Under the pieces are notes generated by a model. It did no database searches. It was not told the DNA's origin and saw only the letters and a program-made list of their open reading frames with translations. This document shows positions 2,089-28,956 of a stretch of DNA of 39,576 nt, piece after piece. The stretch lies in assembly GCA_039584015.1 (NCBI GenBank), contig JBDGYO010000001.1, forward strand, positions 1-39,576, written 5' to 3'. Made by a program: the position numbers and the translations under genes. How positions within the stretch are numbered: the stretch's first letter is position 1; every line of letters starts with the position of its first letter. This stretch comes from Gemmatimonadota bacterium. GTDB taxonomy: Bacteria > Gemmatimonadota > Gemmatimonadetes > Gemmatimonadales > GWC2-71-9.

Positions 2089-3957
2089 GTGACGAGGTCT
2101 AACCGAGCGTCACCGATCATGTCGCTTGTCGTACTGTTTGCGTGCTTGTCTTGTAGCGTCTCCCAAGCTCCCGAGTATCCGGCCTCAATGTTCCGGGGAA
2201 ATGCAGAACACACTGGCGTGTACGACACTCAGGGCGTCGAACGCTTGGGGGGCGTCCTTTGGCGCTTCACCACAGCGGGCCCTGTTCGGTCTACGCCCGT
2301 GGTTACGGGCGACATGGTCTACGTCGGTAGTACCGACGGCAATCTGTATGCGCTCGATCGCAGCACTGGCGCCGAGCGGTGGCACGCATCTGCTGGCAGC
2401 CCCGTGAGCTCGTCTCCAGCTGTGGTGCGCGGGCTCGTCATCTTCGGCAGCAGAGACGGAGTGTTCCGAGCCGTGGATGCCAGAACGGGTGAGCTGCGTT
2501 GGAGTGTCGAGACGGGGCCTTTGATCCCGTGGGAGTGGGGATTCGAGGGATGGGACGTCTATACGTCCTCGCCGGTTGTAGTTGACACGACGGTGGTCTT
2601 TGGAGCTGGAGACGGGCTTCTCTACGCACTGAACGTCGTAACGGGCCGCGAGCTGTGGCGCTTTCAGACGGAGGGGCGCATCCGGTCCACGCCTGCGATT
2701 ACTGACGCGGTCGTGTTCATCGGCAGTACCGACGGACGGATCTATGCCGTGGACTTGGACACTGGGGGTGAGCAGTGGCGCTATGAGACGGACGGAGCGG
2801 GAATGCGGTCGGCTGAGCTCTACGTGGACCGCAAGTCCATCATCTCCTCCCCAGCCGTCGTAGATGGCACCGTCTACGTTGGCTCGAGGGACGGCTACCT
2901 GTATGCCTTGGACCAGGCTACTGGTGAGCGCAGGTGGCGGATCGATCACGATGGTTCCTGGGCCATGTCGTCACCCGCCGTGATTGGAAACACCTTGTAC
3001 AGTGGCACGTCAGATGGACGCTTCGTGCACGCCGTGGACGTGGCAACGGGACAGGAACGCTGGAGATTCCATGGCGACGGCTACACATGGTCGTCTCCAT
3101 GCATCGTGGATGGCACAGTCTACGCGGGGGATGGAGCAGGCTATCTGCGGGCCATCGACCGTCACTCCGGTGTGGAGCGCTGGAACTACTGGGTGGGCGG
3201 CGGCGTGTACTCGAGTCCAGTCGTAGCCGATGGCGTGGTGATATTCGGAGACGAGAACGGAACCGTCTCCGCGCTGCACACGGCACTTCCGGGTCAAGCC
3301 CCGTTTCCCCTTCGCGCCGTCTTCTGGGACGAAGACCTCCGCGACCTGACGATCTTTCGATCGCACCTCGAGACGCGCATCTACTTCGAGCAGCAGGGAT
3401 ATAGGGTCCTCGACTCCGACGCGCTCGCGGACTTCATGCGGTCCCGCATCGATGATGGCACGCCTAGTGTCGTCGTATTCGCGATGGACCACGTGCCAAC
3501 GTCGGTCGCTGCCGAGCCCTCAGACACGGTGCTGTTCCGTCGTTACCTCGACGCCGGCGGCAAGGTCGTATGGCTGGGGCTTCCGCCGATGATGTTGGCC
3601 CGGAATCACGGGGGTGAGGTAGTCGCGGTAGACCGCGGCCGTCCAACGATGCTCCTCGGCGTCGATCATGCGAGCGTCAACTACGACTTCTACGGATCCG
3701 CTTCAACTGAGCTGGGGCACCGCTGGGGCCTCCTTCGCGGATGGGTGAGTTCGTATTCAGTAGAGGCATCCGATGGCATTGAGGTTCTCGGTATTGACGA
3801 GAACGGTCTGGCCGGAGCCTGGGTCAAGAACTTCGGTGGCACGGCCGGAACGGGGTTTGTCAGCATGGGTTCCAGCCGCATTTCGCTAGAGAACATGGCA
3901 GCCATTCGGTCGGTCGCAGAGTACGGAATCGTAGGTCATGCCAAGCTCACGAACTGA
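2089..3957 (+). CDS. Secreted 8-blade PQQ-like (BamB-type) beta-propeller protein with an unassigned ~214-aa C-terminal domain
   Basis: GTG at 2089 lies 5 nt after GAGGAGG (2077-2083). Signal/lipobox-like 'LVVLFACLSCS'. Eight repeats of the type 'G.VY.GS.DG.LYALD..TG...W'. The C-terminal domain occupies 3313-3954. I prefer this start to the ORF-track start at 1984 because of the RBS and signal peptide. Confidence 0.8.
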   Translation: MTRSNRASPIMSLVVLFACLSCSVSQAPEYPASMFRGNAEHTGVYDTQGVERLGGVLWRFTTAGPVRSTPVVTGDMVYVGSTDGNLYALDRSTGAERWHASAGSPVSSSPAVVRGLVIFGSRDGVFRAVDARTGELRWSVETGPLIPWEWGFEGWDVYTSSPVVVDTTVVFGAGDGLLYALNVVTGRELWRFQTEGRIRSTPAITDAVVFIGSTDGRIYAVDLDTGGEQWRYETDGAGMRSAELYVDRKSIISSPAVVDGTVYVGSRDGYLYALDQATGERRWRIDHDGSWAMSSPAVIGNTLYSGTSDGRFVHAVDVATGQERWRFHGDGYTWSSPCIVDGTVYAGDGAGYLRAIDRHSGVERWNYWVGGGVYSSPVVADGVVIFGDENGTVSALHTALPGQAPFPLRAVFWDEDLRDLTIFRSHLETRIYFEQQGYRVLDSDALADFMRSRIDDGTPSVVVFAMDHVPTSVAAEPSDTVLFRRYLDAGGKVVWLGLPPMMLARNHGGEVVAVDRGRPTMLLGVDHASVNYDFYGSASTELGHRWGLLRGWVSSYSVEASDGIEVLGIDENGLAGAWVKNFGGTAGTGFVSMGSSRISLENMAAIRSVAEYGIVGHAKLTN

Positions 3958-4211
3958 GCCGGCACACCGGTGTCTCCCACGCCCGGCCTCGGGGGAATGG
4001 GGCCGACACATTAGTCATGCCGGCAATTCTGGCTGGCGAAGGTCCTCGAGTACGGCGCCGACAACACCATGCAACAGCGTGGCACCGCCTTGAGCGGAAT
4101 AGCGTACTTCTACCTCATCGAGGACACCGACAGTCAGGTGCGTGCCGAGCAGACCTGCGCGGTGCTGGCGTTCCAACGCACCTGCCACAGCGCGGACGAG
4201 GAGAGGCGCGC

Positions 4212-5195
4212 ATGCAAATGAGACGGGTGGGTGTCGCACGGGCACGTCTGTCCCGACGTGACTTTCTCAGGAGTGGCCTGAGCGCGTTGGCCGCACCAGC
4301 GCTCCTGCGCTTCGGCTCTGCCCCGGAGTCAGGAGCGAACTCAATCCCAGGCGCGCGGCTTGCGGCCCGGCCAGGCTCGCCGACGGAGACGCCCATCTTG
4401 GGTCTCAGCAAGTTGGGGCTCGGGGGCAATCGGGACGGAATCCTGTACGTGCCGCAGACCTACTCTGCCAGTCGGGCGGCTCCGCTCTTCGTCGCCCTGC
4501 ACGGCGCCGGCGGAGACGGAGCGAGCTGGGCGAGCTACTTCGCGCGCGCGGAAGCGCGAGGCATGGTATTCCTGGCACCCGATTCCCGTTCCTCCACCTG
4601 GGATGCTGTTACGGGGAGCTTCGGATCGGACGTCGAGTTCCTGGATCGGACGCTGCAGCACACGTTCGCGCGGTGCCGTATCAACCCTGTGCAGGTCGCG
4701 CTGGCCGGATTCTCGGACGGTGCATCATACGCGCTCTCCCTCGGGATCTCCAACGGAGACCTGTTCACCCACCTGGTTGCCTACTCACCGGGATTCGTGG
4801 AATCGGCCGAGCGGTTCGGGAGGCCGTCGATCTACGTATCGCACGGCGCCGGCGACAGCGTCCTGCCCGTGACCCAGAGTCGGGACAACATCGTTCCGGG
4901 TTTGCGCCGCGCCGGCTATGAGGTGACCTACCTAGAGTTCGACGGGGGCCACGGGGTTCCAGCGGAGATCTCCGAAGGGGCGCTGGACTGGTTCCTCGGC
5001 GTCGGGGAGCAAGTTCAGGACAATCGTGTGCCGACCCGGCCATGGCGGCCGAGCAGTAGACGTCACCCTCTTCGACCAGGGCAACTCCTGCTGGGCCGCG
5101 CGACAGCGCCGAGTCCGAGCATCTCCGAGCACTTTCTCTCCACGAGAGCTTCCGCAGCGAACCGATCGCCCTATTATCGAGTATCAAGGCAGTGA
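4212..5195 (+). CDS. Tat-exported alpha/beta-hydrolase (phospholipase/carboxylesterase-type esterase)
   Basis: GAGGAGAGG lies just upstream of ATG 4212. Twin-arginine signal 'SRRDFLRSG'. Motifs 'LHGAGGDG', nucleophile elbow 'GFSDGA', 'SHGAGDSVLP' and 'GGHGVP'. The last ~70 codons are low-complexity with lower third-position GC by hand count. Confidence 0.75.
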   Translation: MQMRRVGVARARLSRRDFLRSGLSALAAPALLRFGSAPESGANSIPGARLAARPGSPTETPILGLSKLGLGGNRDGILYVPQTYSASRAAPLFVALHGAGGDGASWASYFARAEARGMVFLAPDSRSSTWDAVTGSFGSDVEFLDRTLQHTFARCRINPVQVALAGFSDGASYALSLGISNGDLFTHLVAYSPGFVESAERFGRPSIYVSHGAGDSVLPVTQSRDNIVPGLRRAGYEVTYLEFDGGHGVPAEISEGALDWFLGVGEQVQDNRVPTRPWRPSSRRHPLRPGQLLLGRATAPSPSISEHFLSTRASAANRSPYYRVSRQ

Positions 5196-5216
5196 GGACG
5201 GCGGGAGGAGCAAGAC

Positions 5217-8200
5217 GTGCGGGTTCGTCTGAAGCGGGAACAGCTGCTCGAGCTCATGGCCATGAGCTCTCTTTCCCAGAACCACTGGGCGATCAAGCTC
5301 GGCCTTTCCAGCGGTCACTGGTCCGATATCGTCAACGGGAGACACCCGTACCCCTCCGCGCGGACGCGGGATCGGATCCTCGAGATCTTCCAAGCGGCAT
5401 TCGACGAGTTGTTCGAGATCGAATCGGAAGCGCCGGCGTCGTCGGATCAGGACTTCAAGGCGGCCATATCCAATCGATACCTGATTGACAGCGAGGTCGG
5501 ACAGGGCGGGATGGGCACCGTGTACGTCGCGCGAGACGTACGCCTGGGCCGAATCGTGGCAATCAAGGTAGTCTCACCCGAGGCCGTGAGCGGAATCGGA
5601 ACCGAGCAGTTCCTGAAGGAGATCCGGTATTCAGCGAAGCTACAGCATCAGCACATCCTGCCCTTACACGACGCCGGCGAGGTTGCAGGCCAGCCGTACT
5701 ACGTCATGCCCTTCATCCGGGAGGGATCGCTGCGCGGACGGCTCGAGCGGAGCGGAAGGCTCTCACTAGACGAAACCTTATGCATGGTCCGCGGAGTCGC
5801 GGCTGCCCTCGCCTACGCCCACGAGAGCGGCGTGCTCCACTGCGATGTGAAACCCGCCAATATCCTACTGTCGGGCGACCACGCGTTCGTCGCGGACTTC
5901 GGGATCGCCCGAGCCATACATGCAGAGACGTTCGAGTGGGGTAAGCCCGCGCAGATCGACACGTCGGCTGGAACACCCGCGTACGTGAGCCCCGAACAGG
6001 CCAGTGGAGAGAGAGAGCTCGATCTGCGCTCTGATGTGTACAGCCTCGCGTGCATGACCTTCGAGATGCTCGCGGGCCGCCCACCATTCTCAGGCGACAC
6101 GACGATGGCAGTCGTGTCCCAGCGCTTCACTTCGCGGCCGCCAGATATAGGCGAGTTGGTGCCCGATCTTCCGTTGCGCGTGACCGACGCGATCCAGTGG
6201 GGAATGGCACTGGAAGTCGAGCGAAGACCGCAGAGTGCGACGGCATTCGTGGACAATCTCGAACGGGGAGCACGCCACCAGGTGTCACGTGCCAGAGCGC
6301 GGATTGGACTAGCCGCAGCTCGCCTCGGAATATCACTGCAGAAGGCCCTCGGCCGGGTGCCGGCTAGCGGCCCGTTCTCATCCTTCACACGACAACTACG
6401 GACCAAGATGAAGACCATCGTGCGCTCCATCCGGAGTGACATCGTCTACGCGTTCAGGACGTTCAGGCGTGCGCCGATGTTCGTGACCGGTGTCGTGCTG
6501 ACGCTCGGGCTCGGCATAGGCGCGAACATCTTCGTCTTCAGCCTCATGAACCCCTACTTCTTCCGCGCACTGCCATTCGGCGACGCAGACCGACTGGTGC
6601 AAGTCGGGTACATCGATCTTCGGCGGGATCGGGACCTGGCACGGCTCTCCCCTCCACAGTTCGAGGATCTTAGGCAGCAGAGCCGCGCGTTCGAGCACCT
6701 GGAGGCGTACTACTACGCCAACCGCAATGTCACTGGAAGCCAGGAGCCGGAGCGCATTCTGGTCTCGTACGTCACGCGCGGGATGTTCTCGATGCTCCAG
6801 ATCGAACCGGAGTTGGGGCGGACTTTCATCGCGCAAGATACAGCCAGCGGCAGCCAGAATGTCGCTGTGTTGGATCACGGACTGTGGCAACGGCGGTACG
6901 GAGGGGATCCAGGTATCCTCGGACGCTCGATAGGAATTGATGGACGCTCCCACACGATCATCGGCGTGATGCCTCGGCTGTTTGTGTTTCCGTTTAACGG
7001 CGTGGACGCATGGATCCCCATTTCAGGAGCAGTAGGAGACCCGACCTCGTATTCGCGCTCTCGTCGGGGGGCGGTTGTCACCGGTCGCCTCAATAGCGAC
7101 TGGACAATTGCGCGAGCGCGGGAGGAGTTGAACGCGATCCACCGCCGCCTCAGTGCGCTCTACCCTGAGGAGGACGGGCTCTTCGCCGGCGTGAACGTGA
7201 AGCCGATCCGCGAGTCACTGAACTTCGGGTGGTCTGTGCTCCGCCCAATGTTCGCACTCCTGCAAGCAGTGATGACATTCTGGCTCATCTTGGTTTGTGT
7301 GAACGTCGCTAGTCTCATGCTTGCACGAAGTACGGCCCGTGCCGGTGAGGTTGCAGTGCGCACCGCTCTCGGCTCCGGGCGCCGGCGCTTGATTCGGCAG
7401 TTTCTGACCGAGAGCCTCGTGCTGGCAGTAGCCGGTGGAGCACTCGGCATGCTACTGGCCCACTGGGGCAGTGGACTCGTCCAGCCCCTCATGCCGGAAC
7501 AGTGGTTCCGAGTGGGAGAGGCATCGATAGACGGGAATGTTGTGCTCTTCGCCCTGGGTGTGACTGTAGTGACGGCTGTGCTCTTCGGGCTTGCCCCGGC
7601 GCTGACGGCAATACGCACCGACCTGTCGGCAGCGCTCAAGGAGGGAGCCGGCGGCGCGCCGGGGATTCGATTGATCCGTGCGCGCCGGCTGATAGTGGTG
7701 TGCGAAGTGGCGATGGCGGTCGTGCTCATGAGCGGAGTGGGGCTAGCGGCCCGGAGTCTCATGGCCCTCCAGCGGCTCGACCTCGGCTTCGATCCCGTCC
7801 ACGTGCAGACCTTCCATGTGTACCCACCGACCTACTCCCATCCCGCAATGGAAGACGTCGAGTCTTACTACCGCCAGGTGCTCTCACGGATCAGGACCGT
7901 TCCGGGCGTCAGGGTGGCTGCCACTGCGAGCAGACTACCCTTGAACCATGAGATCCCCCTGGAAGCGTTCACGACTCCAGGCCGCGTCGCAGCATCAGTG
8001 GAGGACTGGCCGATCGGACTCGTCACGAGCGTCTCGCCGGGATACTTCGACGCAACTGAGACGCCGCTCGTAGCCGGCCGTGACTTCAGCGAGCTGGACG
8101 CACAAGATGCTCAGAGAGTTGCGATCGTTAGCGATGATCTCGCCGATCTCTTGTGGCCCGGTGAAGGCGCCGTCGGTCGCACGCTTCAAGTAGGTGACCC

Positions 8201-8852
8201 TCAGGACGATCCACGGGAAGTGACCATCGTGGGCGTCGTGGGGGACGTTCACTTCGAGGGGATCGCGAGCGCAGAACACCCACAGATCTACTTGTCGCTC
8301 TACCAGGAGCCGCGCCGGTCTCGCTTTATCGTGCTCGCAATTGACGGGCAGTGGCAGCAAATGGTCTCGACGCTGCGGCAAGCGATGCTGGACGTCGATA
8401 GCGATATACCCTTCAGGATGCGGTCGCTGAGCTCGATTGTCGATGAGAGTGTGATGCCTTTCAGACTCAGCACGGTGCTCCTCGTAACACTCGGAATCGC
8501 TGCCCTGCTGCTCGCGAGCCTCGGTATCTACGGAGTCATCGCGTACTCCGTAGCGCAGCGGGGACGGGAGATTGGGATCCGGATGGCGCTGGGCGCTACA
8601 GAGGCAAAGGTGCGGATGGCGTTCGTAGTCGAGGGCGTCAAACTGAGCATGCTCGGGATCCTCATTGGGTTGGTGGTTGCAGCCGCCGCCAATGGCCTCC
8701 TGAGGTCTCTACTGTTCGGCGTCGGCGGATTCGACGTGGTCACGTTTGGCGCTGTGCTCGTGGTGTTCGTAGGTGTTGCGGCTGTGGCAAGCCTGTTGCC
8801 GGCCGTTCGAGCAAGCCGGGTCAATCCTGCGGAGGCCCTGCGGTACGAGTGA
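5217..8852 (+). CDS. Fusion protein: Cro/C1-like HTH + Hanks-type Ser/Thr kinase + ADOP-type duplicated MacB_PCD/FtsX permease
   Basis: GTG start after GGGAGGAG. HTH-like 'LSQNHWAIKLGLSSGHWSDIVNGRHPYPS'. Kinase motifs 'GQGGMGTVY', 'VAIKV', 'HCDVKPANIL', 'DFG' and 'GTPAYVSPE'. From about aa 398 there is a typical ADOP N-terminus, 'IVYAFRTFRRAPMFVTGVVLTLGLGIGANIFVFSLMN'. Two periplasmic-domain/FtsX modules follow, and the protein ends '...RVNPAEALRYE'. Confidence 0.85.
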   Translation: MRVRLKREQLLELMAMSSLSQNHWAIKLGLSSGHWSDIVNGRHPYPSARTRDRILEIFQAAFDELFEIESEAPASSDQDFKAAISNRYLIDSEVGQGGMGTVYVARDVRLGRIVAIKVVSPEAVSGIGTEQFLKEIRYSAKLQHQHILPLHDAGEVAGQPYYVMPFIREGSLRGRLERSGRLSLDETLCMVRGVAAALAYAHESGVLHCDVKPANILLSGDHAFVADFGIARAIHAETFEWGKPAQIDTSAGTPAYVSPEQASGERELDLRSDVYSLACMTFEMLAGRPPFSGDTTMAVVSQRFTSRPPDIGELVPDLPLRVTDAIQWGMALEVERRPQSATAFVDNLERGARHQVSRARARIGLAAARLGISLQKALGRVPASGPFSSFTRQLRTKMKTIVRSIRSDIVYAFRTFRRAPMFVTGVVLTLGLGIGANIFVFSLMNPYFFRALPFGDADRLVQVGYIDLRRDRDLARLSPPQFEDLRQQSRAFEHLEAYYYANRNVTGSQEPERILVSYVTRGMFSMLQIEPELGRTFIAQDTASGSQNVAVLDHGLWQRRYGGDPGILGRSIGIDGRSHTIIGVMPRLFVFPFNGVDAWIPISGAVGDPTSYSRSRRGAVVTGRLNSDWTIARAREELNAIHRRLSALYPEEDGLFAGVNVKPIRESLNFGWSVLRPMFALLQAVMTFWLILVCVNVASLMLARSTARAGEVAVRTALGSGRRRLIRQFLTESLVLAVAGGALGMLLAHWGSGLVQPLMPEQWFRVGEASIDGNVVLFALGVTVVTAVLFGLAPALTAIRTDLSAALKEGAGGAPGIRLIRARRLIVVCEVAMAVVLMSGVGLAARSLMALQRLDLGFDPVHVQTFHVYPPTYSHPAMEDVESYYRQVLSRIRTVPGVRVAATASRLPLNHEIPLEAFTTPGRVAASVEDWPIGLVTSVSPGYFDATETPLVAGRDFSELDAQDAQRVAIVSDDLADLLWPGEGAVGRTLQVGDPQDDPREVTIVGVVGDVHFEGIASAEHPQIYLSLYQEPRRSRFIVLAIDGQWQQMVSTLRQAMLDVDSDIPFRMRSLSSIVDESVMPFRLSTVLLVTLGIAALLLASLGIYGVIAYSVAQRGREIGIRMALGATEAKVRMAFVVEGVKLSMLGILIGLVVAAAANGLLRSLLFGVGGFDVVTFGAVLVVFVGVAAVASLLPAVRASRVNPAEALRYE

Positions 8853-8904
8853 ACACAGGTGGTCGGCTGCCACCGTGGCCGTGTGATCGGCCAGAGGGAA
8901 GTCC

Positions 8905-10158
8905 GTGGACATAGTAAGAGAACCAACGCGCAAGGGGAAGAAGTACGTGGTGTCCGGCGCCGTGGTTGCCGCCCTGCTGGTCGTTACGATCGGTCTCTCC
9001 AGACTCCAGCCTGCGGCGCCGTCCGTTGATGCGGCCACGATCTGGACCGATACGGTCGAGCGCGGGACGCTGCTCATCCAAGTCAGCGGCGCCGGCACAC
9101 TGGTGCCTGAGCGCGTCCGCTGGGTCCCGGCCGAGATACCGGGCCGCGTGGAACGCAAGCTGGTTCAGCCGGGGACTGCGGTGACCCCTAACACGGTTCT
9201 GCTCGAATTGAGCAATCCTGACGTCCGGCTCGAACTACTGGAGGCCGAGCGCGAGTTGTCAACTGCCCGCCAGCAGTTGGTCGGGCTCCAGACCACGCTT
9301 CAGACGATGCAGATCGATCAACTGGGCCTCTTAGCGCAGATTCGCGCGCGGTGTCTCCAAGCAGAACGGAACAGGGAGGTGCTCGAGGAACTAGCGAGGC
9401 GGGGCGATGGCTTCGTCTCAGAGGTCGAGCTTGCGACTGCGCGTGAGAGCGCCGACGAATTGCATACTCGTCTCGACCTTGAGACGCGCCGCCTCGCCAT
9501 AGTCCGTGAATCGGAGGAACCGCAACTCCAAGTCCAACGGGACCAGATCGAGCGTCTCACTGAGATTGTTGCATTCCAACGCCGGCGCATCGCTTCGATG
9601 CAAGTGCGGGCGGGGATCGATGGCGTGCTGCAAGAGATGAACCTCGAGGAAGGTCAATGGGTGCTGAACGGCCAAGTGCTTGCCCGAGTTGTCGTGCCGG
9701 AGCGGCTGAAGGCCGAGCTGAGGGTTCCACAGCTGCAAGCGCGTGACGTGGCACTGGGTCAGATAGCGCTTGTTGACCTCAGGAGTGATTCGGTAACTGG
9801 ACGAGTTGTGCGTATCGACCCCGCTGCGCAGGACGGTTTCGTCGCCGTGGACGTGGAGTTGCCGGACGAACTGCCACGCTCGGCCCGCCCCGGATTGCGA
9901 GTGGAGGGAATAGTCGAGATCGAGCGGCTCGACGGAGTGCTCTTCGTAAGCAGGCCCGCCTTCGGCCAAGCCCACAGTACAGTGGGGTTGTTCCGTCTAG
10001 TCGATGGCGGCAAGGCTGCAGAGAGGGTGACAGTGCGCTTGGGGCGTGCTTCGGTCACGGTTATCCAAGTCGTGGACGGCCTTCAGCCCGGTGAGGTGGT
10101 GATCCTCAGAGACATGTCGCAGTGGGATGAGTATGACCGTGTCCGCATCAAGGGGTAG
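8905..10158 (+). CDS. HlyD/MacA-type periplasmic adaptor (membrane fusion protein)
   Basis: GTG start 52 nt after the permease stop. N-terminal TM 'VVSGAVVAALLVVTIGL', a long coiled-coil segment (LELLEAERELSTARQQL...) and a beta-rich C-terminus typical of efflux adaptors. Confidence 0.8.
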   Translation: MDIVREPTRKGKKYVVSGAVVAALLVVTIGLSRLQPAAPSVDAATIWTDTVERGTLLIQVSGAGTLVPERVRWVPAEIPGRVERKLVQPGTAVTPNTVLLELSNPDVRLELLEAERELSTARQQLVGLQTTLQTMQIDQLGLLAQIRARCLQAERNREVLEELARRGDGFVSEVELATARESADELHTRLDLETRRLAIVRESEEPQLQVQRDQIERLTEIVAFQRRRIASMQVRAGIDGVLQEMNLEEGQWVLNGQVLARVVVPERLKAELRVPQLQARDVALGQIALVDLRSDSVTGRVVRIDPAAQDGFVAVDVELPDELPRSARPGLRVEGIVEIERLDGVLFVSRPAFGQAHSTVGLFRLVDGGKAAERVTVRLGRASVTVIQVVDGLQPGEVVILRDMSQWDEYDRVRIKG

Positions 10159-10165
10159 GCTGACA

Positions 10166-10912
10166 ATGCCAGTCGAAAGGGAGACGACAGGTATGGAACG
10201 CGCCAACGGACCGCTGATAAGGCTCGAGGGTGTAACCAAGGTATTCCAGACCGAAACGGTCGAGACGCATGCCCTCTCAAACGTTGATCTCGACATCTAC
10301 CAGAGGGAGTATGTGGCCGTAGCGGGCCCCTCGGGGTGCGGGAAGACGACGCTGTTGTCAATCCTCGGGTTGCTGGACGTGCCGACTCAAGGCTCGTACT
10401 CTCTGGCCGGCACAGCCGTCTCCGACATTCCCTCGTCTCAACGTGCACGAATCAGAAACCAACGGATCGGGTTCGTGTTTCAGGCGTTCAACCTGATCGG
10501 TGACCTTACGGTCTATGAGAACGTCGAGCTCCCCCTCACCTATCGCGACATGCCCGTTGGCCAGCGCAAGAAGCGGGTGACCGAAGCACTGGAGAGGGTC
10601 GGCATGTCACATCGTACAAGGCACTTCCCGGCGCAGCTCTCCGGTGGCCAACAGCAACGAGTAGCAATCGCGCGCTCGGTAGCCGGCGATCCGGCGATCC
10701 TCCTGGCAGACGAGCCGACCGGGAACCTCGACTCCGTGAACGGGGAGGCGGTCATGGCACTGCTGAGAGAACTCCATCAAGACGGCGCCACGGTATGCGC
10801 CGTGACCCACGACCCGCGATACGCGGACCACGCTCAACGAACGGTCCGATTGTTCGATGGCAAGGTAGTGGATGGCTTGAAGGATGCGGCTACGGCACGA
10901 CCCAATAGCTGA
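10166..10912 (+). CDS. ABC transporter ATP-binding protein (MacB/LolD/FtsE-type)
   Basis: Walker A 'GPSGCGKTT', signature 'LSGGQQQRV', Walker B '[12 protein letters not shown]', H-loop 'VTHD'. The start is uncertain: ATG 10166 lies 7 nt after the adaptor stop, ATG 10193 is an alternative, and the ORF-track start 10127 overlaps the adaptor gene. Confidence 0.85.
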
Positions 10913-10990
10913 TCTTCACCATCAAGATGCTGTTCCCGGGCGGCTCGAACAGGGCCCGCCCCGTGTTTGGGAACGGCCAGACTGAGGGGT

Positions 10991-11770
10991 CTAGGTGAGC
11001 TCGAAGAACTCTGCTATCTCTCTGCTGAACCGTCTGCTGGAATCCAGTTGCATGCCGTCAACCATGGTCAGCCTGAGCCGGCCGCTCGGGAGTGTGTGCA
11101 GTTCCTTGACCTTCTCCGCGCACACCGCGCGCGATCGGCTGATACGCAGGAATCCAGACACCCCAAGCCTGGACATCATCTCCGACAGCGTTGCACGCAC
11201 CAGATAGCTTGCCGACCCAACGTGCAGGCGGACGTAGTTGCCGCGAACCTCGATCCACTCGATCTCGCTGTGCGGCACGAACGTAACCCGTCCGCGATCC
11301 TTGATCAGCACGCGGTCTGTGTGCCACCTGGGTCGCGTGACTCTCTCCGTTGCAGCAAGGTGCTCCAGGAGGGACAGCATTTCCGCACTCATGTCGGTGA
11401 CACGGTTCTGCCGCACGCGGCTCTTCGCGCGGAACAGCGCCTGGACAAACCGCTCCCGGTCAAACGGCTTCACAAGGTAGTCAACGGCATTTACCTCGAA
11501 GGCACGGAGTGCGTACGAGTCATAGGCGGTGACGAAGACAATCGTGGGCATCTCCTCAGGCGTGAGTGACGCAAGCACGCCAAAGCCGTCGAGATCCGGC
11601 ATCTGCACGTCAAGGAACACGAGGTCGGGACGCTCGGTGCGAATGGACTCGACTGCGGCCAGGCCGTTGCTGCATTCGCCAACGATCACTAGCTCCGCGT
11701 CGCCGGCAAGTAGTGTCCGGATACCGCTGCGCGCGATGGGTTCGTCGTCGACGATGAGTGTCCGGATCAT
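10991..11770 (-). CDS. LytTR-family response regulator
   Basis: Receiver domain 'MIRTLIVDDEP...FLDVQMPDLDG' plus a C-terminal LytTR-type DNA-binding domain. The start ATG (11770-11768) overlaps the kinase stop in an ATGA junction, so the ORF-track start at 11863 is rejected. Confidence 0.85.
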   Translation of the reverse strand: MIRTLIVDDEPIARSGIRTLLAGDAELVIVGECSNGLAAVESIRTERPDLVFLDVQMPDLDGFGVLASLTPEEMPTIVFVTAYDSYALRAFEVNAVDYLVKPFDRERFVQALFRAKSRVRQNRVTDMSAEMLSLLEHLAATERVTRPRWHTDRVLIKDRGRVTFVPHSEIEWIEVRGNYVRLHVGSASYLVRATLSEMMSRLGVSGFLRISRSRAVCAEKVKELHTLPSGRLRLTMVDGMQLDSSRRFSREIAEFFELT

Positions 11771-12891
11771 TGGCTCGGCACGCCATTGGTGCCCACTGCC
11801 GGCGCGCGTCGCAGTGGAATCGTCATTCGGATGGTGCATCCCCCAGTAGGGGGCGTGCTGCATTCGAAACGGTGCTCCGTTCCGTACAAGTGCCGGAGCC
11901 TTGCGCGCGTGTTGCTGAGGCCCATCCCTTCGTCGCGGTCGATGTCAAATCCCGGAGCAAGGCCCGGACCGTCGTCTGTGACTTCGAGCACCAGTTTCTC
12001 TCCCGCCGCGCAGGCACTGATGATGAGCCGGCCAGCAGTCGAAGACTGTGCGATCCCGTGTTGCACCGCGTTCTCGACGAGCGGTTGCAGTATCAGATTG
12101 GGCACCTGCGCGTCGTAGACACCCTCGTCGACCCGCAGGTCGACCCGCAGCCGGTCGGCGAACCGTACGGTCTCGATCTCCAGATAACGCTCGACAAACT
12201 CTACCTCCGACAGGAGATCTACGTACTGACGCTCAGTGTTGTCCAGTGTGAGACGCAGGAGTTCGCCGAGCATCGTCAAGACGCGGTTCGCTTCCTCCGT
12301 ATCGGTGAGGTTGAGCATCGAGACCGAGTGTAGGGTGTTGAAAAGAAAATGTGGCTGGAGCTGCATCTTCAACGTAAGTAGCCGCGACGTGGCAAGGCGT
12401 GCTTCGAGCTGCGACGCACGTAGTTGCCGCTCTCGGTACCGCCGATAGTAGTCAAAGGCATAGTACAGACCAATAATGACCCAGTAGCGCCAAACGCCGG
12501 TAATCAGCAAGAGGGGAAAGGTCGCCCCGATATTGGCAAGAGCCCAGTCAACAAACGCCCGATCAGAGATCGGAACAGTAGTGACCAAGACGTACTTCAG
12601 CGCGGAGAACATGCTCACCTGAACTAGTGCGAAGGTCACGCCGCCGAGCGCCTGCAGGACAAGGTGCCGCCCCCACACCCCTGGTTCGAGGCGAAACCGG
12701 CGCGCCATGAACAGGAGTGCCGGCGTCAAGAGAGCATATGGCGTCCAATACAGGAGCTCGAAGCCGACCTGCTGCAGCCAGTTGGGCGCGTCCAGTTCAT
12801 AGCCTAGGGTGACAACACCTACGATGTTGTGGCCGATGAAGAAGAGCGCCACCAGCGCCCACACACCTACCACAAGCGCTGCACGTTTCAT
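11767..12891 (-). CDS. LytS/YehU-type membrane sensor histidine kinase
   Basis: Multi-TM N-terminus. H-box 'LQPHFLFNTLHSV' typical of the LytS-type His_kinase family. N-box 'QPLVENAVQHG', plus 'DDGPG' and 'GMGLSNTRARL'. Confidence 0.85.
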   Translation of the reverse strand: MKRAALVVGVWALVALFFIGHNIVGVVTLGYELDAPNWLQQVGFELLYWTPYALLTPALLFMARRFRLEPGVWGRHLVLQALGGVTFALVQVSMFSALKYVLVTTVPISDRAFVDWALANIGATFPLLLITGVWRYWVIIGLYYAFDYYRRYRERQLRASQLEARLATSRLLTLKMQLQPHFLFNTLHSVSMLNLTDTEEANRVLTMLGELLRLTLDNTERQYVDLLSEVEFVERYLEIETVRFADRLRVDLRVDEGVYDAQVPNLILQPLVENAVQHGIAQSSTAGRLIISACAAGEKLVLEVTDDGPGLAPGFDIDRDEGMGLSNTRARLRHLYGTEHRFECSTPPTGGCTIRMTIPLRRAPAVGTNGVPSQ

Positions 12892-12982
12892 TCTATCCGT
12901 ACTGCCGGTTGAGGAGGTCGTATCTCAGCGTACCATGTCGCCCTGCAGTCACACAGCCCGATGCAGGGCCACTTCTAGATGT

Positions 12983-13052
12983 GGACCGTTCCGCACTGCA
13001 GCAACCAAGCAGGGGACGAACGGTCCCGAGCGCGTGATCACCGGGCGTTCGT
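12983..13052. promoter_or_regulatory. Cluster of CGTTC-core motifs and a 9-bp inverted repeat upstream of the LytS/LytTR operon (candidate LytTR autoregulatory site)
   Basis: GGACCGTTC (12983-12991) and its exact reverse complement GAACGGTCC (13018-13026). GACGAACGG (13015-13023) is the reverse complement of CCGTTCGTC. Near-copies are CCGTTCCGC (12986-12994) and GCGTTCGTA (13044-13052). The cluster lies 92-160 bp upstream of the kinase start. Confidence 0.35.
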
Positions 13053-13336
13053 ACGGGATAGGCGGGTTTCGGTAGATACCGTCTGATTTCCATCGCCAAT
13101 GGTCAGCCCGCTCAGCCGATCACACCTCAAGGTACTGACCTCTGACAATCTACCGTAGCCCCGCACTGGTGGAAGACTCGGCGGCCTCAAGGCCGGTGAA
13201 TCCCTCGTCCCCGCCTCGGGACCGGAACGGAACGATCTCTCGCTTGCCGACCCGCTCCTCCCGCTGGGCACTAGACTCCGATCCCCACGCCCCAACCACC
13301 TGGCCCTGAGAAACGCCCGCTGGCCACAAACTCCGT

Positions 13337-13385
13337 TGCTCACTCAAGTAATGAGCACAGACTCGTGAAGCAAGGAGCACAGACT
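13337..13385. promoter_or_regulatory. Composite repeat: TGCTCA-N9-TGAGCA inverted repeat overlapping two 11-bp direct repeats GAGCACAGACT with a 22-bp period
   Basis: TGCTCA at 13337-13342 and TGAGCA at 13352-13357. GAGCACAGACT at 13353-13363 and again at 13375-13385. The element ends 33 nt before the ATG of the DUF5916-like gene. Confidence 0.4.
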
Positions 13386-13417
13386 GGGCCCGAGGTGACA
13401 AGAAGGGAGCGCTGACG

Positions 13418-24647: not shown

Positions 24648-27479
24648 ATGGACATCACAGCAGGGCTGAGCGTGCTACTCGCCGGGCGGTACGAGCTTGA
24701 GCGGGTACTCGGACACGGCGCGATGGCGGTGGTCTACCTCGCCCGTGACCTGAAGCACGAGCGCCTGGTCGCCATCAAGGTGCTGCGCCCCGAGCTCGCG
24801 GCCTCCCTGGGAGGCGAGCGCTTTCTGCGCGAGATCCAAATTGCCGCCCCGCTGCAACACCCCCACATCCTGCCGCTGTACGACTCCGGCGCCGGCGACG
24901 GCCTGATGTACTACGTCATGCCGTACGTCGAGGGCGAGAGCCTGCGCGACCGGCTGAACCGGGAGGGGCAACTCCCCCTGCCCGACGCGCTGCGCATCTC
25001 GCGTGAGGTGGCGGAGGCCCTCAGCTACGCCCACAGCCACGACGTGATCCACCGCGACATCAAGCCCGAGAACGTGATGATCACGGGCGAGCACGCGGTG
25101 GTGGCCGACTTCGGCATCGCCCGGGCGGTGACGGCAGCCGCGCACCAACCGCTCACCGAGACGGGGCTGGCCATCGGCACGCCGGCGTACATGAGCCCGG
25201 AGCAGGCCACCGGCGCGACCAAGCTGGACGGGCGCTCCGACGTGTACGCCCTGGGCTGTGTGCTGTACGAGATGCTCGTAGGTGAGCCCCCGTTCACCGG
25301 GCCGACGGCGCAGGCGGTCATCGCGCGGCACGTGAGCGAGCACGCCCCCTCGGTGCGGGTGGTGCGGGAGGCGGTGCCGGAGGAGCTGGAGGAGGTGATC
25401 GACAAGACACTCGCCAAGACACCGGCCGACCGCTTTACCAGCGCCACGCAACTCGCCCAGACCATCGGGGCGCTGGAGACAGGCGAGTACAAGCGTGTGC
25501 CCGCCCGCATCAGGCAGCGCCGCCGGGTGGGCATCGTCGGGGTAGCGCTCATCGTAGCCTCAATCGTTGCGCTGCGACTGATCTTCCCTCCCGAGCCGAC
25601 ACTCGAGCGCAACCGCATCGTGGTGTACCCGCTGGTCGTGAGCGGCGAGTACCAGGGAGACCGGGGAGGCGGCGAGCGCGTGGCGCTGGCCGTGGGCTAC
25701 GCCCTGGAGAGTACCGGTCTGTTTCGCTGGACCGACGGATGGAGCCTGCTCGGCGTCGACGCACGGGAGGACGTGCGGACCCTCTCCGAGGACGACGCGC
25801 GCGACCTCGCCCGGGAGCAGGCGGCCGGCTACTTCATCGACGGCCGCGTGGTGCCGCGCGGGGACTCGGTCGACATCATGCTGGCGCTGCACGACGTCGC
25901 CGCCGATTCCGTCGTCCTGTGGAGCAGCGCGGCTGGGGTGCCGGGTGAAGACTGGCACCTCGGCCTTCTCGCGCTCAACGAGCTGCTTCCGGAGATCACG
26001 GGAGAGCGCGTCGGGGTCGGCTGGCTGACTGACCACGCGACCACCGCGGTGGCGCACTTCCTCCAGGGGGAGCAGGAGTACCGCCGCTCGCACTTCGGCC
26101 TCGCACTGGACCACTACGACCGCGCGGTGGCCATCGACTCGACACTCGCGATCGCCGCCCTGCGTGGCGCGCAGGCGGCGAGCTGGATACGCGAGCCCGA
26201 CCGGGCGGAGGCGCTCGTGGCGGTCACGCTGGCCCGAGAGCCAATGCTCCCTGCAGAGCAGATCCTGTTTGCGCGCGGCCTCGAGTCCTACTTCACCGGC
26301 GCAGCCGATACCGCGGTGTGGTACCTGAGGGAGGCGCTGGCCCACGACCCGGAGTGGCGTGACGTGTGGATGGCGCTGGGCGAGGTCTACCACCACTTCT
26401 TGCCCAACGAGTCCCCACTCGATTCCCTCGCCGAAGCTGCGTTCGCAACGGCGCGCCAGCTCGATACCGCGTTTACGCCGCCGCTGTATCACCTGACGGA
26501 GTTCGCCATTCTTGGGGGGGACCTCGAGGCAGCTCGCGACATGCTGGACCGGTTCAGCCGGGAGTCGCCCGATACGTCGCTCACCCAGCAGCTGTTCCTC
26601 ATGTACGACTGCGTGGCCCGCGGGGACGAGGTGGTGGACTGGCAACGCGCCACGCGGGAGACACCGCTCGCTGTGCTGCGAGCGGCCGACGCGCTCGTGG
26701 CTGCGGGCGCGCAGCCCGCCTGTGGGGAGCGCGCCTTCGAGGCGGTGCTGCGGCACGACGGGCCCGACGCGGGGGGCCGACGCTGGGGCGCCATGTACGG
26801 GCTGCAGAGCCTCCTGGTCGCGCAGGGCCGCTACGACGAGGCCGGTCGGCTGCTCGACTCGGCCGCGGCGACCGGCGACGGCACGGTTCCCCCGCTGTAT
26901 GTGCTGGACGCGGCCGCGGGTGCGCCGCTCGAGGCGCAGGCGACGGCATACATCGCCGAGCGGTATGGCCGCCCCGGCGAGATCGCGAGCCCCAACCTCT
27001 GGGTACTGGGGATCTGGCACGCGCACCTCGGGAACGCCGCGGAGCTCGAGGCGGTCGCCGACACCCTTGCCGGGCGCGCGGCCACCACGGACGCTCGCAT
27101 GGATCGGCTCCTGGCCGAGGCCACGGCGGCGCTAGCGGCACTGGCCCGCGCCGATACGGCGGAGGCGCTCGACCGCCTCAAGGCCCTGCGGCCGAGCGCG
27201 CGGAGTGGGCCGCTCGCAGGATTCCCGTGGGAGTCGCTCGGGCCGGAACGAATGGCATTGGCGGAGCTGCTGTTCGCCCGCGGGGAACTCGAACAGGCGG
27301 CGACCGTGGCGGCGAGCTTCGACTCCCCCGCCCCGGTGTCGTATCTGCTGTACCTGCCGGCCAGTCTATCACTGCGACTGCGCGTCGCCGAGGCGCGGGG
27401 CGACGCCGCGGGCGTGGAGGAGTATAGGAAGAGGCTAGTTGCACTAGGGCGGTACGACCTCGCTGGCCTCGTGCCGTGA
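24648..27479 (+). CDS. Membrane Ser/Thr protein kinase with a large extracytoplasmic sensor and TPR-like helical-repeat region
   Basis: Kinase motifs 'GHGAMAVVYLA', 'VAIKVL', 'HRDIKPENV', 'DFG' and 'GTPAYMSPE'. Single TM 'VGIVGVALIVASIVALRLIF'. It is followed by about 630 aa with an alpha/beta N-terminal part and Ala/Leu-rich helical repeats. Confidence 0.85.
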   Translation: MDITAGLSVLLAGRYELERVLGHGAMAVVYLARDLKHERLVAIKVLRPELAASLGGERFLREIQIAAPLQHPHILPLYDSGAGDGLMYYVMPYVEGESLRDRLNREGQLPLPDALRISREVAEALSYAHSHDVIHRDIKPENVMITGEHAVVADFGIARAVTAAAHQPLTETGLAIGTPAYMSPEQATGATKLDGRSDVYALGCVLYEMLVGEPPFTGPTAQAVIARHVSEHAPSVRVVREAVPEELEEVIDKTLAKTPADRFTSATQLAQTIGALETGEYKRVPARIRQRRRVGIVGVALIVASIVALRLIFPPEPTLERNRIVVYPLVVSGEYQGDRGGGERVALAVGYALESTGLFRWTDGWSLLGVDAREDVRTLSEDDARDLAREQAAGYFIDGRVVPRGDSVDIMLALHDVAADSVVLWSSAAGVPGEDWHLGLLALNELLPEITGERVGVGWLTDHATTAVAHFLQGEQEYRRSHFGLALDHYDRAVAIDSTLAIAALRGAQAASWIREPDRAEALVAVTLAREPMLPAEQILFARGLESYFTGAADTAVWYLREALAHDPEWRDVWMALGEVYHHFLPNESPLDSLAEAAFATARQLDTAFTPPLYHLTEFAILGGDLEAARDMLDRFSRESPDTSLTQQLFLMYDCVARGDEVVDWQRATRETPLAVLRAADALVAAGAQPACGERAFEAVLRHDGPDAGGRRWGAMYGLQSLLVAQGRYDEAGRLLDSAAATGDGTVPPLYVLDAAAGAPLEAQATAYIAERYGRPGEIASPNLWVLGIWHAHLGNAAELEAVADTLAGRAATTDARMDRLLAEATAALAALARADTAEALDRLKALRPSARSGPLAGFPWESLGPERMALAELLFARGELEQAATVAASFDSPAPVSYLLYLPASLSLRLRVAEARGDAAGVEEYRKRLVALGRYDLAGLVP

Positions 27480-27867: not shown

Positions 27868-28956
27868 ATGCCGAGGGCCTGGTGGCAGAGCCGAGCCAAA
27901 CGACGCGGGTCGCGCCCTCCAAGGCTCTCGCGCCCCAGTCTCGGGGTGAGCGCCGGGCAGCTGCGGTCGGCCGCACTGCGGCGGCACCGGCTGATGGAGG
28001 GGGCCGACGTCGGCGCCTATCGCCTGGGGCCACTCATCGGTTGCGGCGGGATGGGGGAGGTCTATCACGCGACCCACCGCCTGCTGGGTCGTTCGGCGGC
28101 CGTCAAGCTCATCCGGCCCGAGGTGCTGATCGAGGCCGACGACGACGACGTGTTCCTGACCTTGCGCCGCTTCCGTCGCGAGGCCAGGTCCGGCGCGACC
28201 CTGCGCTCACCCCACGCCGTCAGCCTGTTCGATTTCGGCGTGACCGACCGCGGCACGTTCTACATCGTGATGGAGCTGCTCGAGGGTCTGAACCTCGCGC
28301 AGCTGGTCACACGGTTCGGGCCCGTCCCCGCGGAGCGCACCGTCCACATCCTGTACCAGGTGAGTGCCGCGCTCGGCGAGATGCACGCGCACGGCCTGGT
28401 GCACCGCGACGTCAAGCCCGAGAACGTGCATCTCATCCCTCGGGACCAGCACCATGACTTCGTGAAGCTGACGGACCTCGGACTGGTGAAGCCCGAGCGC
28501 GGAACCACGACCGAGCACCGGCTGGTTCGGGCACGGGGCTGCATCCTCGGGACACCGGCCTTCATGGCGCCCGAGACGGCCAGGGGTGACCCGGGCGACG
28601 AACGCACCGACATCTACGCCCTGGGGTGCGTGGCCTACTGGCTCCTCACCGGCTGCACGGTGTTCGACGCCGACGATGTGCAGGGCCTGATGCGCAGCCA
28701 CATCGACATGGATCCAACGCCGCCCTCGCAGCGCACCGAGCTCGAGCTGCCTGCATCACTGGAGCGCCTCATCCTCTGGTGCCTGTCCAAGCACCCCGAG
28801 ATGCGACCGCAGAGCGCCAAAGAGTTTTCCACCCGCCTGGCTGCCTGCAAGCTGACGCGGACCTGGACCGCAGAGCAGGCCGAACGGTGGTGGGACGCGC
28901 ACCTCCCCACGGGAGAGGTGGCGATGGTGGCGGGGTCGGGGCCGAGGTCGGCGTAG
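27868..28956 (+). CDS. Soluble Ser/Thr protein kinase (kinase domain plus short tails)
   Basis: GGGAG lies 7 nt upstream of ATG 27868. The Arg-rich 42-aa leader has high third-position GC by hand count. Motifs are 'GCGGMGEVYHA', 'AAVKLI', 'HRDVKPENV', 'DLG' in place of DFG, and 'GTPAFMAPE'. No TM segment. ATG 27994 is an alternative start. Confidence 0.8.
   Translation: MPRAWWQSRAKRRGSRPPRLSRPSLGVSAGQLRSAALRRHRLMEGADVGAYRLGPLIGCGGMGEVYHATHRLLGRSAAVKLIRPEVLIEADDDDVFLTLRRFRREARSGATLRSPHAVSLFDFGVTDRGTFYIVMELLEGLNLAQLVTRFGPVPAERTVHILYQVSAALGEMHAHGLVHRDVKPENVHLIPRDQHHDFVKLTDLGLVKPERGTTTEHRLVRARGCILGTPAFMAPETARGDPGDERTDIYALGCVAYWLLTGCTVFDADDVQGLMRSHIDMDPTPPSQRTELELPASLERLILWCLSKHPEMRPQSAKEFSTRLAACKLTRTWTAEQAERWWDAHLPTGEVAMVAGSGPRSA

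Follow-up and report, generated by a model that had tools for sequence, protein, structure and literature searches.

A putative autoregulated sensor-regulator of Gemmatimonadota that combines a DNA-binding domain, a Hanks-type kinase and an ADOP permease in one polypeptide

In soil Acidobacteriota and Gemmatimonadota, few paralogous families are as large as the ADOP permeases; to our knowledge, neither a function nor an energy source has been assigned to them since the family received its name. The 39,576-nt stretch of Gemmatimonadota DNA analyzed here (contig JBDGYO010000001.1 of assembly GCA_039584015.1; hereafter the window) encodes a 1211-aa protein, in which such a permease is preceded by a putative DNA-binding domain of the helix-turn-helix (HTH) type and a Hanks-type Ser/Thr kinase domain. 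The fusion gene (5217..8852, forward strand) is followed by genes for a membrane-fusion protein (MFP) and an ABC ATPase, termed ATP1. The question raised by this locus is what a DNA-binding domain and a kinase do on the N-terminus of a permease, and what part the neighboring adaptor and ATPase play. We propose, with a probability of about 0.6, that the fusion protein is a membrane-tethered, autoregulated sensor-regulator, i.e., a one-polypeptide signal transducer.

Domain architecture of the fusion protein and its family

The fusion gene is a single frame of 1211 codons without internal stops. It starts at GTG 5217, which is preceded by a Shine-Dalgarno sequence, GGGAGGAG (5203..5210, forward strand, read from the sequence), 6 nt 5' of the start codon; homologs from many assemblies begin with the same MRVRL residues, thus the N-terminal extension of the protein is genuine. 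All of the best 120 database clusters (38-70% identity to the window protein) contain the Pkinase, MacB_PCD, and FtsX domains, and nearly all of them are 1128-1237 aa long, one being truncated at 962 aa. The continuous architecture is present in assemblies from NCBI, JGI, ENA, and Logan, and the family comprises 48 distinct full-length loci in our sample. One copy, from a long-read metagenome-assembled genome (MAG), does carry frameshifts, and we found no other support for the alternative that a missed stop, a frameshift, or a chimeric assembly has joined separate kinase and permease genes; this alternative is excluded, as judged from the sequences, because the same domains in the same order and at a similar length recur in at least 120 clusters from varied assembly sources. 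The original prediction of three modules in one uninterrupted open reading frame (ORF), made from the window sequence, is thereby confirmed by the frame, the Pfam and TIGR03434 matches, and the homologs. The frameshifts of the long-read MAG (L023, 422-6076) affect the MFP, ATPase, and fusion genes and may be sequencing errors or decay. A candidate protein with the HTH attached to another domain (L115, 51-698) was rejected as a truncated pseudogene, in which the HTH and the kinase N-lobe are followed by a stop and the neighboring genes are unrelated.

The N-terminal module (aa 1-70; 5217..5426, forward strand) is assigned to the XRE/Cro-C1-type HTH domains by profiles, an AlphaFold2 (AF2) model, and Foldseek. 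The profile scan proposed with the original prediction recovered Pkinase, two MacB_PCD, two FtsX, and TIGR03434, while the HTH_31 match of the window's own N-terminus stays below threshold (E 1.3e-4, 22.7 bits, gathering cutoff 27). The same profile is matched by 29 of 29 N-termini across the family (best E 1.2e-8), and a profile search of the PDB with the HTH returns XRE-family proteins (E 1e-3). The AF2 model of residues 1-86, with a confidence score (pLDDT) of 87-96, and of 94-96 over residues 1-70, has a five-helix fold (helices 7-15, 21-28, 32-39, 48-58, and 62-65, flanked by two short strands) with helix 2, turn, and helix 3, the recognition helix. It superposes on VanU, DR_2454, CylR2, SinR, C.AhdI, DdrO, and lambda cI at 1.3-2.9 Å, and its top 50 Foldseek matches are almost all XRE-type regulators, with TM-scores of up to 0.85. 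The Cro/C1-like assignment originally made from the sequence is supported by the family-wide HTH_31 matches and the modeled fold.

The second module (aa 87-345; 5475..6251, forward strand) is a Hanks-type Ser/Thr kinase domain, identified by Pfam (PF00069, residues 90-302, E 3e-43), motifs, and Foldseek (PknB and PknA kinase domains, TM-scores 0.75-0.85). Alignments of 40 and 116 full-length homologs show the following positions to be invariant or nearly so: G95xG97xxG100, K117, E135, H208-C-D210-x-K-P-x-N215, D227FG, T253PAYVSPE, D273, and R337. The kinase therefore has the catalytically complete set of Hanks motifs that had been read from the window sequence (G-loop, VAIK Lys, catalytic loop, DFG, and APE-like), and phosphotransfer is predicted. 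The residue before the catalytic Asp is not the Arg of the RD subtype, it is an invariant Cys209 (H208-C209-D210), thus the kinase belongs to the non-RD type.

A juxtamembrane linker (aa 346-404; 6252..6428, forward strand), in part modeled with low confidence, leads to the ADOP module, a duplicated MacB/FtsX-type permease (aa 405-1211; 6429..8852, forward strand) recognized by TIGR03434, hydropathy, and Foldseek. The TIGR03434 score of 817.2 bits (cutoff 622.3) aligns residues 406-1211 with model positions 2-803, and hydropathy predicts eight transmembrane (TM) helices, in agreement with AF2 (426-444, 684-702, 729-752, 775-793, 825-843, 1086-1104, 1136-1154, and 1179-1197). This 4+4 arrangement leaves two periplasmic domains of about 240 residues each (aa 445-683, nt 6549-7265, and aa 844-1085, nt 7746-8471, both on the forward strand and delimited by hydropathy), as the original prediction of two periplasmic-domain/FtsX modules had it. 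The FtsX coupling-helix motifs are invariant across the family (E711, R715, G719, E732, R1122, and G1126). The AF2 model of residues 1-1200 has a mean pLDDT of 89.8 and a pTM (predicted TM-score) of 0.70; confidence drops only at the hinge between HTH and kinase, along the activation loop, and at linker residues 381-390 (pLDDT 54). The top Foldseek match of the model is Escherichia coli YbbP (9ge6_A, E 3e-20), followed by PknB/PknA kinase domains and MacB.

The locus is no one-off and represents a big paralogous family. All named clusters among the best 120 are from Gemmatimonadota, where they are labeled only as 'ADOP family duplicated permease', 'protein kinase', or 'ABC transporter permease', and each genome has at least 2-3 paralogs. 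A search of 1.84 billion proteins with a profile of the N-terminal HTH yields 178 representatives at E<=1e-10, which form two full-length classes: proteins of ~1200 aa with the HTH-kinase-ADOP architecture, and proteins of ~900 aa in which the HTH is joined directly to the ADOP module without a kinase. Column conservation is highest in the HTH (0.76), followed by the kinase (0.71) and the periplasmic domains (0.42-0.45), and lowest in the juxtamembrane linker (0.29). This is the pattern of a receptor family, which would combine a constant output with diversifying sensors.

Several relatives were noted along with this family. The kinase-less class includes P0284, P0291, P0305, P0334, and about 40 further representatives of 880-960 aa. 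Five Gemmatimonadaceae loci (L035, L039, L047, L050, and L051) contain tandem arrays of three to five kinase genes ~2.2 kb apart; these kinases are 43-48% identical to the window kinase domain, and the putative operator described below is found in none of the arrays. In an Acidobacteriaceae MAG (L022, 7770-13304), an 884-aa ADOP gene is followed after 165 nt, on the same strand, by a gene for a 904-aa Ser/Thr kinase, a pair in which another phylum may have the counterpart of the fusion as two separate genes.

A conserved repeat upstream of the fusion genes

The region upstream of the fusion gene contains a putative operator, the tandem direct repeat CGAGC-ATCTC-CGAGCACTT (CGAGCATCTCCGAGCACTT) with a 10-bp period (5116..5134, forward strand; found by a regular expression and a position weight matrix), which is contained in the 3'-terminal part of the upstream esterase ORF, at a distance of 83 nt from the fusion start codon. 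Of the 210-nt regions upstream of 43 family genes, 38 contain the word AGTGTTCG, which is present in only 1 of 43 control segments taken from within genes. The consensus of the repeat is (a/t)(c/t)CGAAC-nnttc-CGAACACTTTnT, again with a 10-bp period, or in its short form CGAAC-N5-CGAACACTTT, the version of the window being CGAGC-N5-CGAGCACTT. In 1.70 Mb of sequence scanned on both strands, the regular expression gave 73 matches and a 40-nt weight matrix gave 94 matches above 14 bits. All these matches are located on the coding strand, from a few tens to ~175 nt upstream of genes with the family HTH. The formal exception is L023, where the sole copy of the repeat precedes by 149 nt the MFP gene, which is the first gene of an MFP-ATPase-fusion operon. 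The same scan found no repeat at other sites, among them the surroundings of kinase-only genes, plain ADOP/PadR pairs, and orphan MFP-ATPase pairs.

The repeat covaries with the recognition helix. Across the paralogs, the surface formed by helices 2 and 3 is near-invariant (Q21 N22 H23 W24 A25 ... G33 H34 W35 S36), and residue 32 is the first residue of helix 3 in the AF2 models, the classical base-contacting position in Cro/cI-type domains. Where base 4 of both repeats is A, residue 32 is Arg (61 distinct site/HTH pairs) or Lys (12 pairs); where it is G in both, residue 32 is Ser (4 pairs, from the window, L013, L101, and L103); and one further pair combines T,A with Arg32. Thus, the rule that A goes with Arg or Lys and G with Ser has no exceptions in 78 distinct pairs. 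The nearest relatives of the window protein have Arg32 and CGAAC, and L013, L101, and L103 form a distant clade of ~40% identity, so base 4 and residue 32 have changed jointly at least two times. A second, partial covariation may exist, since the second repeat of four Lys32 loci (L118, 8227; L120, 3541; L132, 959; L133, 9913) reads CGAACGCTTT; in eight further Lys32 loci it is CGAACACTTT, as in the consensus.

Given this covariation and the near-invariant helix 2/helix 3 surface, the most economical reading, and the most likely one, is that the fused HTH binds its own upstream repeat. The idea of a membrane-tethered DNA-binding domain, raised originally as a mere possibility, is thus backed by a conserved putative operator. 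Since the paralogs share both the helix and the operator, cross-regulation among them is expected.

Past the repeat, members of the window clade share the pattern TGAAAC-N16/17-CGTATC, and an alignment of 10 upstream regions contains three conserved blocks. In the window, pattern-level alignment identifies an ECF-sigma-like promoter candidate on the forward strand (5158..5185), with CGAACC (5158-5163) separated by 16 nt from AGTATC (5180-5185); a scan of 3900-13500 for sigma-70 promoters and terminators returned nothing above shuffled expectation. Because an ECF-sigma-like pattern follows the repeat, the fusion operon probably has its own promoter. The same pattern can be quoted for another explanation, in which the repeat would be recognized by a different regulator or sigma factor common to these genes, and the HTH would mediate protein-protein interactions, as in RodZ. 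Response regulators are the more typical users of tandem direct repeats, and recognition-helix residues conserved across paralogs could equally reflect one common protein partner. We consider this explanation very improbable: the repeat occurs only with HTH-bearing genes in the scanned sequence and is absent near kinase-only, plain-ADOP, and orphan MFP-ATPase genes, and base 4 of both repeats shifts together with residue 32 in two lineages.

The adaptor and ATPase genes and other neighbors

The MFP gene (8905..10158, forward strand) begins 52 nt past the fusion stop, as originally stated, and encodes a 417-aa protein with an N-terminal TM anchor and a long coiled-coil region that matches HlyD_3 and HlyD_D23; its RND_mfp score of 85 bits is below the 94.9-bit cutoff. 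The ATP1 gene (10193..10912, forward strand) encodes a MacB/LolD/FtsE/DarD-like ATPase with intact Walker A, LSGGQQQR, ILLADEPT, and H-loop motifs. Its orthologs begin with MEQQNGGLIKLEGV / MERNNGALIELSG, thus its start is ATG 10193, 34 nt past the MFP stop, and the gap of 7 nt given at first has to be corrected, the gene end at 10912 being unchanged. The same 34-nt gap is present in L165. ATP1 is located 1.3 kb downstream of the fusion gene in the same putative operon, and the window therefore encodes together a MacB-type permease, a nucleotide-binding domain (NBD) of the MacB/LolD family, and a membrane-fusion adaptor. The ADOP family was originally described in TIGRFAMs as 'orphan', i.e., without an adjacent ABC ATPase gene, and at the window locus an ATPase gene is nearby.

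Conservation of this linkage was analyzed in 80 loci from reference genomes, 80 loci from metagenomes, and targeted contexts, which were searched with the window MFP and ATPase; 41 of the 48 distinct full-length loci are informative, having at least 1.5 kb of flank on one side. An ATPase or MFP gene is nearby in only 5 of the 41 informative loci. Thirty-six loci have no ATPase nearby, in agreement with the view that ADOPs are normally orphans. Whether the fusions keep an adjacent adaptor or ATPase, a check proposed at the outset, is therefore answered in the affirmative for five loci and in the negative for the rest. The linked gene orders are fusion-MFP-ATPase (K-MFP-ATP) in the window and L083, K-MFP followed by the contig end in L096, K-ATP without MFP in the L081/L085/L086 group, and MFP-ATP-K in L023, which is a different paralog and an independent case. 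The window clade (at least 52% identity) has 10 informative members, of which 4 are linked; outside it, L023 is the only linked case. The close orthologs L084, L171, and L001 (58-60% identity) are unlinked to MFP or ATPase genes.

The MFP and ATP1 genes have a distribution of their own. The MFP orthologs form at least 120 clusters at 58-71% identity, the MFPs of the conserved MFP-ATP1 pair being 60-71% identical to that of the window, and ATP1 proteins of the sampled MFP-ATP1 contexts are 72-82% identical to that of the window, those from permease-less pairs being as close to it as the family-linked ATPases, or closer. Five of six long contexts (L165-L169) have a fixed synteny, DUF58, MoxR, DUF4350, DUF4129, an unnamed gene without Pfam match, RDD/SpoIIM, and MFP-ATP1, and in these five there is no FtsX-type permease within 6-8 kb of the pair. 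One permease-less context shares a 5.5-Mb genome with an unlinked close ortholog of the kinase-permease (P0005); the distance between pair and ortholog is 2.8 Mb in genome CP070666.1. The sixth context (L170, 6001-13245) has the order MFP-ATP1-ATP2, after which come two plain ADOP genes in tandem (809 and 827 aa). The second ATPase, ATP2, shares 40-45% identity with ATP1, its orthologs being 71-85% identical to one another; the adjacent ATP1 and ATP2 genes of L170 hint at a heterodimeric NBD pair for asymmetric duplicated permeases. In L165-L169 (e.g., L165, 8001-10038 and 12042-16559), a few kb past MFP-ATP1, we observed a 330-aa stand-alone Hanks kinase without HTH and with either HCD or HRD, followed by ATP2, conserved there as a second orphan ATPase, and by a sigma-54 response regulator and a histidine kinase.

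By gene order, MFP-ATP1 is the conserved and normally permease-less pair of this lineage, and the original description of the fusion as having its own adaptor and ATPase does not hold, as the adjacent genes are orthologs of this pair. We nevertheless regard MFP-ATP1 as the best candidate for the missing energizer of 'orphan' ADOPs, acting in trans in most genomes, because the pair is without a permease of its own in most contexts, because it has come to lie next to ADOP-type permeases on at least three separate occasions, in varying gene order, and because the FtsX coupling-helix motifs are invariant throughout the family.

The same data bear on an alternative, in which the fusion is an ATP-independent receptor kinase, the ADOP module being a ligand-binding scaffold only and the MFP-ATPase pair having landed nearby by rearrangement. 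The absence of ATPase and MFP genes from 36 of the 41 informative loci, the unlinked nearest orthologs, the 2.8-Mb distance in CP070666.1, and the orphan MFP-ATP1 pairs that lack the operator all speak for it. We nevertheless consider it unlikely, given that three different ADOP juxtapositions (K-MFP-ATP, MFP-ATP-K, and MFP-ATP1-ATP2-ADOP-ADOP) occur among about a dozen contexts, that the genes in the window lie on the same strand with operon-like gaps of 52 and 34 nt, and that the family operator precedes the MFP gene in L023; the lack of any other FtsX-type permease beside MFP-ATP1 and the invariant coupling-helix motifs also argue against a passive scaffold.

According to a further alternative, the kinase regulates a pump: autophosphorylation, or phosphorylation of the ATPase or adaptor, would gate a MacAB-like efflux or export system, for which the HTH would only set the level of expression. 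A complete set of MFP, NBD, and MacB-type permease in one operon, the MacA-like TM anchor and long coiled coil of the MFP, and the kinase motifs, complete in sequence, are consistent with this possibility, and it is compatible with the sensor-regulator reading. It appears quite improbable as the primary design, since the pump parts are not adjacent in most family members, the periplasmic domains diverge while the cytoplasmic module is constant, as in sensor families, and the kinase-less HTH-ADOP class suggests that the kinase is dispensable for the core design; moreover, TolC was not found in the window ORFs scanned.

Other genes surround the operon. An exported esterase/PHB-depolymerase-like hydrolase, identified by profile matches (4017..5195, forward strand), ends 21 nt before the fusion gene; it is a possible periplasmic partner and is probably on a separate transcript. 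Among 48 loci, 9 have an exported serine-hydrolase gene at most 1 kb from the kinase-permease gene, 8 of them on the same strand, vs 2 matches in 281 kb of farther flank, a comparison biased by queries taken partly from adjacent genes. These loci are the window (4017-5195), L085 (7933-9618), L172 (7498-9369), L173 (8794-9966), L012, L015, L103, L128, and L009; the neighboring hydrolases belong to the alpha/beta-hydrolase esterase or beta-lactamase families, some with DUF3471, and recall the YbbAP-TesA and FtsEX-hydrolase partnerships. Clustering of all ORFs within 4 kb of 54 family loci revealed no universal neighbor, the only recurrent ones being other kinases, other ADOPs, and beta-lactamase-family genes.

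Convergent to the operon, genes for a LytS-type histidine kinase and a LytTR response regulator (10991-12891, reverse strand) overlap by 97 nt. Similar histidine kinases occur within 4 kb of a family gene in L106 (5415-6485), L144 (16828-17955), and L156 (1324-2676). The LytS/LytTR system was rejected as the output pathway because it is absent from the sampled ortholog loci L081, L083, and L084. The window also contains two more Hanks kinase genes, 24648..27479 (kinase and TPR, 44% identical to the fusion kinase) and 27868..28956, both of the RD type, and its segment 24001-28000 has a G+C content of 70-71% vs about 62% around the fusion locus.

Signaling model, related systems, and significance

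The proposed sensor is the ADOP module, a mechanotransmission device with two variable periplasmic domains, which would sense something in the periplasm or outer leaflet, probably while it is cycled by ATP1 with the MFP. The output would be the conserved cytoplasmic N-terminus, i.e., the non-RD Hanks kinase and the XRE-type HTH. Substrate engagement or the ATP-driven permease cycle would be passed through TM1 and the juxtamembrane helix to the kinase and HTH, and the relayed state would alter the kinase state and/or dimerization, leading to target phosphorylation and to occupancy of the tandem operator. The tandem site needs two HTH copies, hence probably two molecules. By binding the repeat ~80 nt upstream, the protein would regulate its own operon, which in the window includes the MFP and ATPase genes, and MFP-ATP1 would energize ADOP-type permeases at large, acting in trans in the majority of genomes and in cis in the window. 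We infer DNA binding, ATPase coupling, the direction of signal flow, and the kinase substrates; either permease cycling would drive the kinase, as in flux sensing, or phosphorylation would gate the pump.

Several points weigh against this model. The covariation of base 4 with residue 32 comes from two independent lineages only, XRE-type HTHs usually bind inverted repeats as dimers, so that a head-to-tail tandem site is atypical, and another common factor could use the repeat. The HTH is about 340 residues away from the membrane anchor, and the AF2 model gives nothing reliable on the placement of the kinase and HTH relative to the permease. On the side of the energizer, linkage to MFP or ATPase genes is rare and is missing from the closest orthologs, the orphan MFP-ATP1 pairs carry no repeat, and the multi-TM RDD/SpoIIM gene just upstream of the orphan MFPs is a possible alternative membrane partner. 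There is no TolC/OEP domain in the large ORFs scanned across the 39.6-kb window, though it could be encoded elsewhere, and no phosphatase or FHA partner nearby.

The literature searched, including the review and primary papers on the MacB superfamily, contains no description of a kinase-permease fusion of the HTH-kinase-ADOP type, in agreement with the original statement that no experimentally characterized system with such an architecture is known. The fusion sequences are public and generically annotated; what is new is the putative operator and its covariation with the HTH. The equivalog scores of the permease, MFP, and ATPase are below cutoff, thus none of them is an ortholog of a named system, and the comparison with known systems yields partial likenesses. 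In BceAB-BceRS, a type VII (MacB-superfamily) permease likewise senses and reports its transport state to a kinase that controls its own operon, the ATPase being separate. However, BceB has 10 TM helices and one extracellular domain, whereas the fusion has 8 TM helices and two periplasmic domains; the Bce signal goes to a separate histidine kinase and response regulator, in place of the Hanks kinase and XRE HTH on the permease N-terminus; and Bce systems occur in Bacillus subtilis and other Firmicutes, whereas the window is from Gemmatimonadota and has an MFP adaptor in the locus. Assignment to the Bce module was rejected because of the different permease topology and the lack of BceS and BceR in the locus.

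MacAB-TolC has the same MacB-type permease fold, a MacB/LolD-like ATPase, and, anchored in the membrane, an adaptor with a coiled-coil hairpin. MacB is a dimerizing 4-TM half-transporter with the NBD fused to its N-terminus, whereas the fusion has the HTH and kinase at this position, both halves in one chain, and a separate NBD; MacAB-TolC also has a TolC duct, and no TolC gene is found near the fusion in the ORFs scanned. The permease was rejected as a MacB ortholog, all NCBIfam equivalog scores being far below cutoff. PASTA kinases (PknB/Stk1) similarly combine a cytoplasmic Hanks kinase, a juxtamembrane linker, and an extracytoplasmic sensor, and provide the closest kinase structures, but PknB is of the RD type and has a single TM helix and PASTA repeats, unlike the non-RD (HCD) fusion kinase with its N-terminal HTH and 8-TM permease anchor. 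In ToxR and CadC, too, one polypeptide combines a periplasmic sensor with a DNA-binding domain anchored at the inner membrane; unlike the fusion, these proteins span the membrane once, have OmpR-type winged helices, and lack kinase and transporter modules. YbbAP-TesA (9ge6/9ge7; PMC12646458) resembles the fusion in that both halves of a duplicated MacB-type permease, with two periplasmic domains, form one chain and the ATPase is separate. It works with a periplasmic esterase, and an exported esterase is encoded by the gene that ends 21 nt upstream of the fusion. However, YbbP has 10 TM helices, no cytoplasmic signaling domains, and no adaptor, and the esterase neighbor of the fusion is not conserved among orthologs.

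A precedent for an ADOP as a membrane sensor is the HAAS-PadR dyad, predicted computationally for proteins in which it is fused to FtsX/MacB_PCD domains and where an N-terminal cytoplasmic module speaks to a transcription factor (PMC11237479). In this system, a separate PadR winged-helix protein is bound by a HAAS helical domain and there is no kinase, whereas the fusion has an XRE HTH in cis, usually along with a Hanks kinase; a HAAS-PadR assignment was rejected for the window, where the N-terminus is HTH and kinase and no PadR is encoded. Pairs of PadR and permease-prefix ADOP genes adjoin members of the fusion family in the same genomes. The plain ADOPs concerned have the NCBIfam 'permease prefix domain 1' (L007, 7481-10546; L012, 1714-4700; L015, 11112-14146; L160, 3681-6769 and 6816-9850), and each is directly preceded by a gene for a 111-139-aa PadR protein (PF03551, E 1e-20 to 1e-22 in the four scanned). 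From this precedent (PMC11237479) and from such pairs near family members, ADOPs appear to be sensors that feed transcription factors.

The neighbor-joining tree of the ADOP parts is too star-like to tell whether the kinase-bearing, HTH-only, and plain ADOPs form separate clades. In this poorly resolved tree, the three kinds are interleaved, and a PadR-associated plain ADOP (L015, 11112-13802) nests among kinase-bearing members (L097 and relatives). This interleaving suggests that N-terminal heads have been swapped among ADOP paralogs.

As a wider and more speculative possibility, which we put forward tentatively, these ADOPs could form an ABC-powered receptor network, in which one permease-less engine (MFP-ATP1, perhaps with ATP2) serves dozens of ADOP sensors with interchangeable heads and one shared operator for the HTH types. 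The heads would be an XRE HTH alone, an XRE HTH with a Hanks kinase, or HAAS with PadR, and would turn mechanotransmission cycles into transcription and phosphorylation, many sensors thus converging on one regulon.

The present analysis provides testable candidates on both sides of the membrane signal: the conserved permease-less MFP-ATP1 pair as ADOP partner, and, as output target, a 20-bp operator with a predicted single-residue switch (R/K32 for CGAAC vs S32 for CGAGC). Compact and orthogonal, the operator/HTH pair could also serve as a part in synthetic biology. The proposed function, if true, would make the fusion the first type VII ABC mechanotransmission module wired to a eukaryote-like kinase, and the first Hanks kinase sandwiched between a DNA-binding domain and a transporter. 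The network, if it exists, would be a class of transmembrane signaling distinct from two-component systems and classical receptor kinases, and would answer what powers the 'orphan' ADOP permeases. Thus, ADOPs look like sensors with transcription-factor and kinase outputs, and the fusion looks like a new bacterial route from cell-envelope events to gene regulation.

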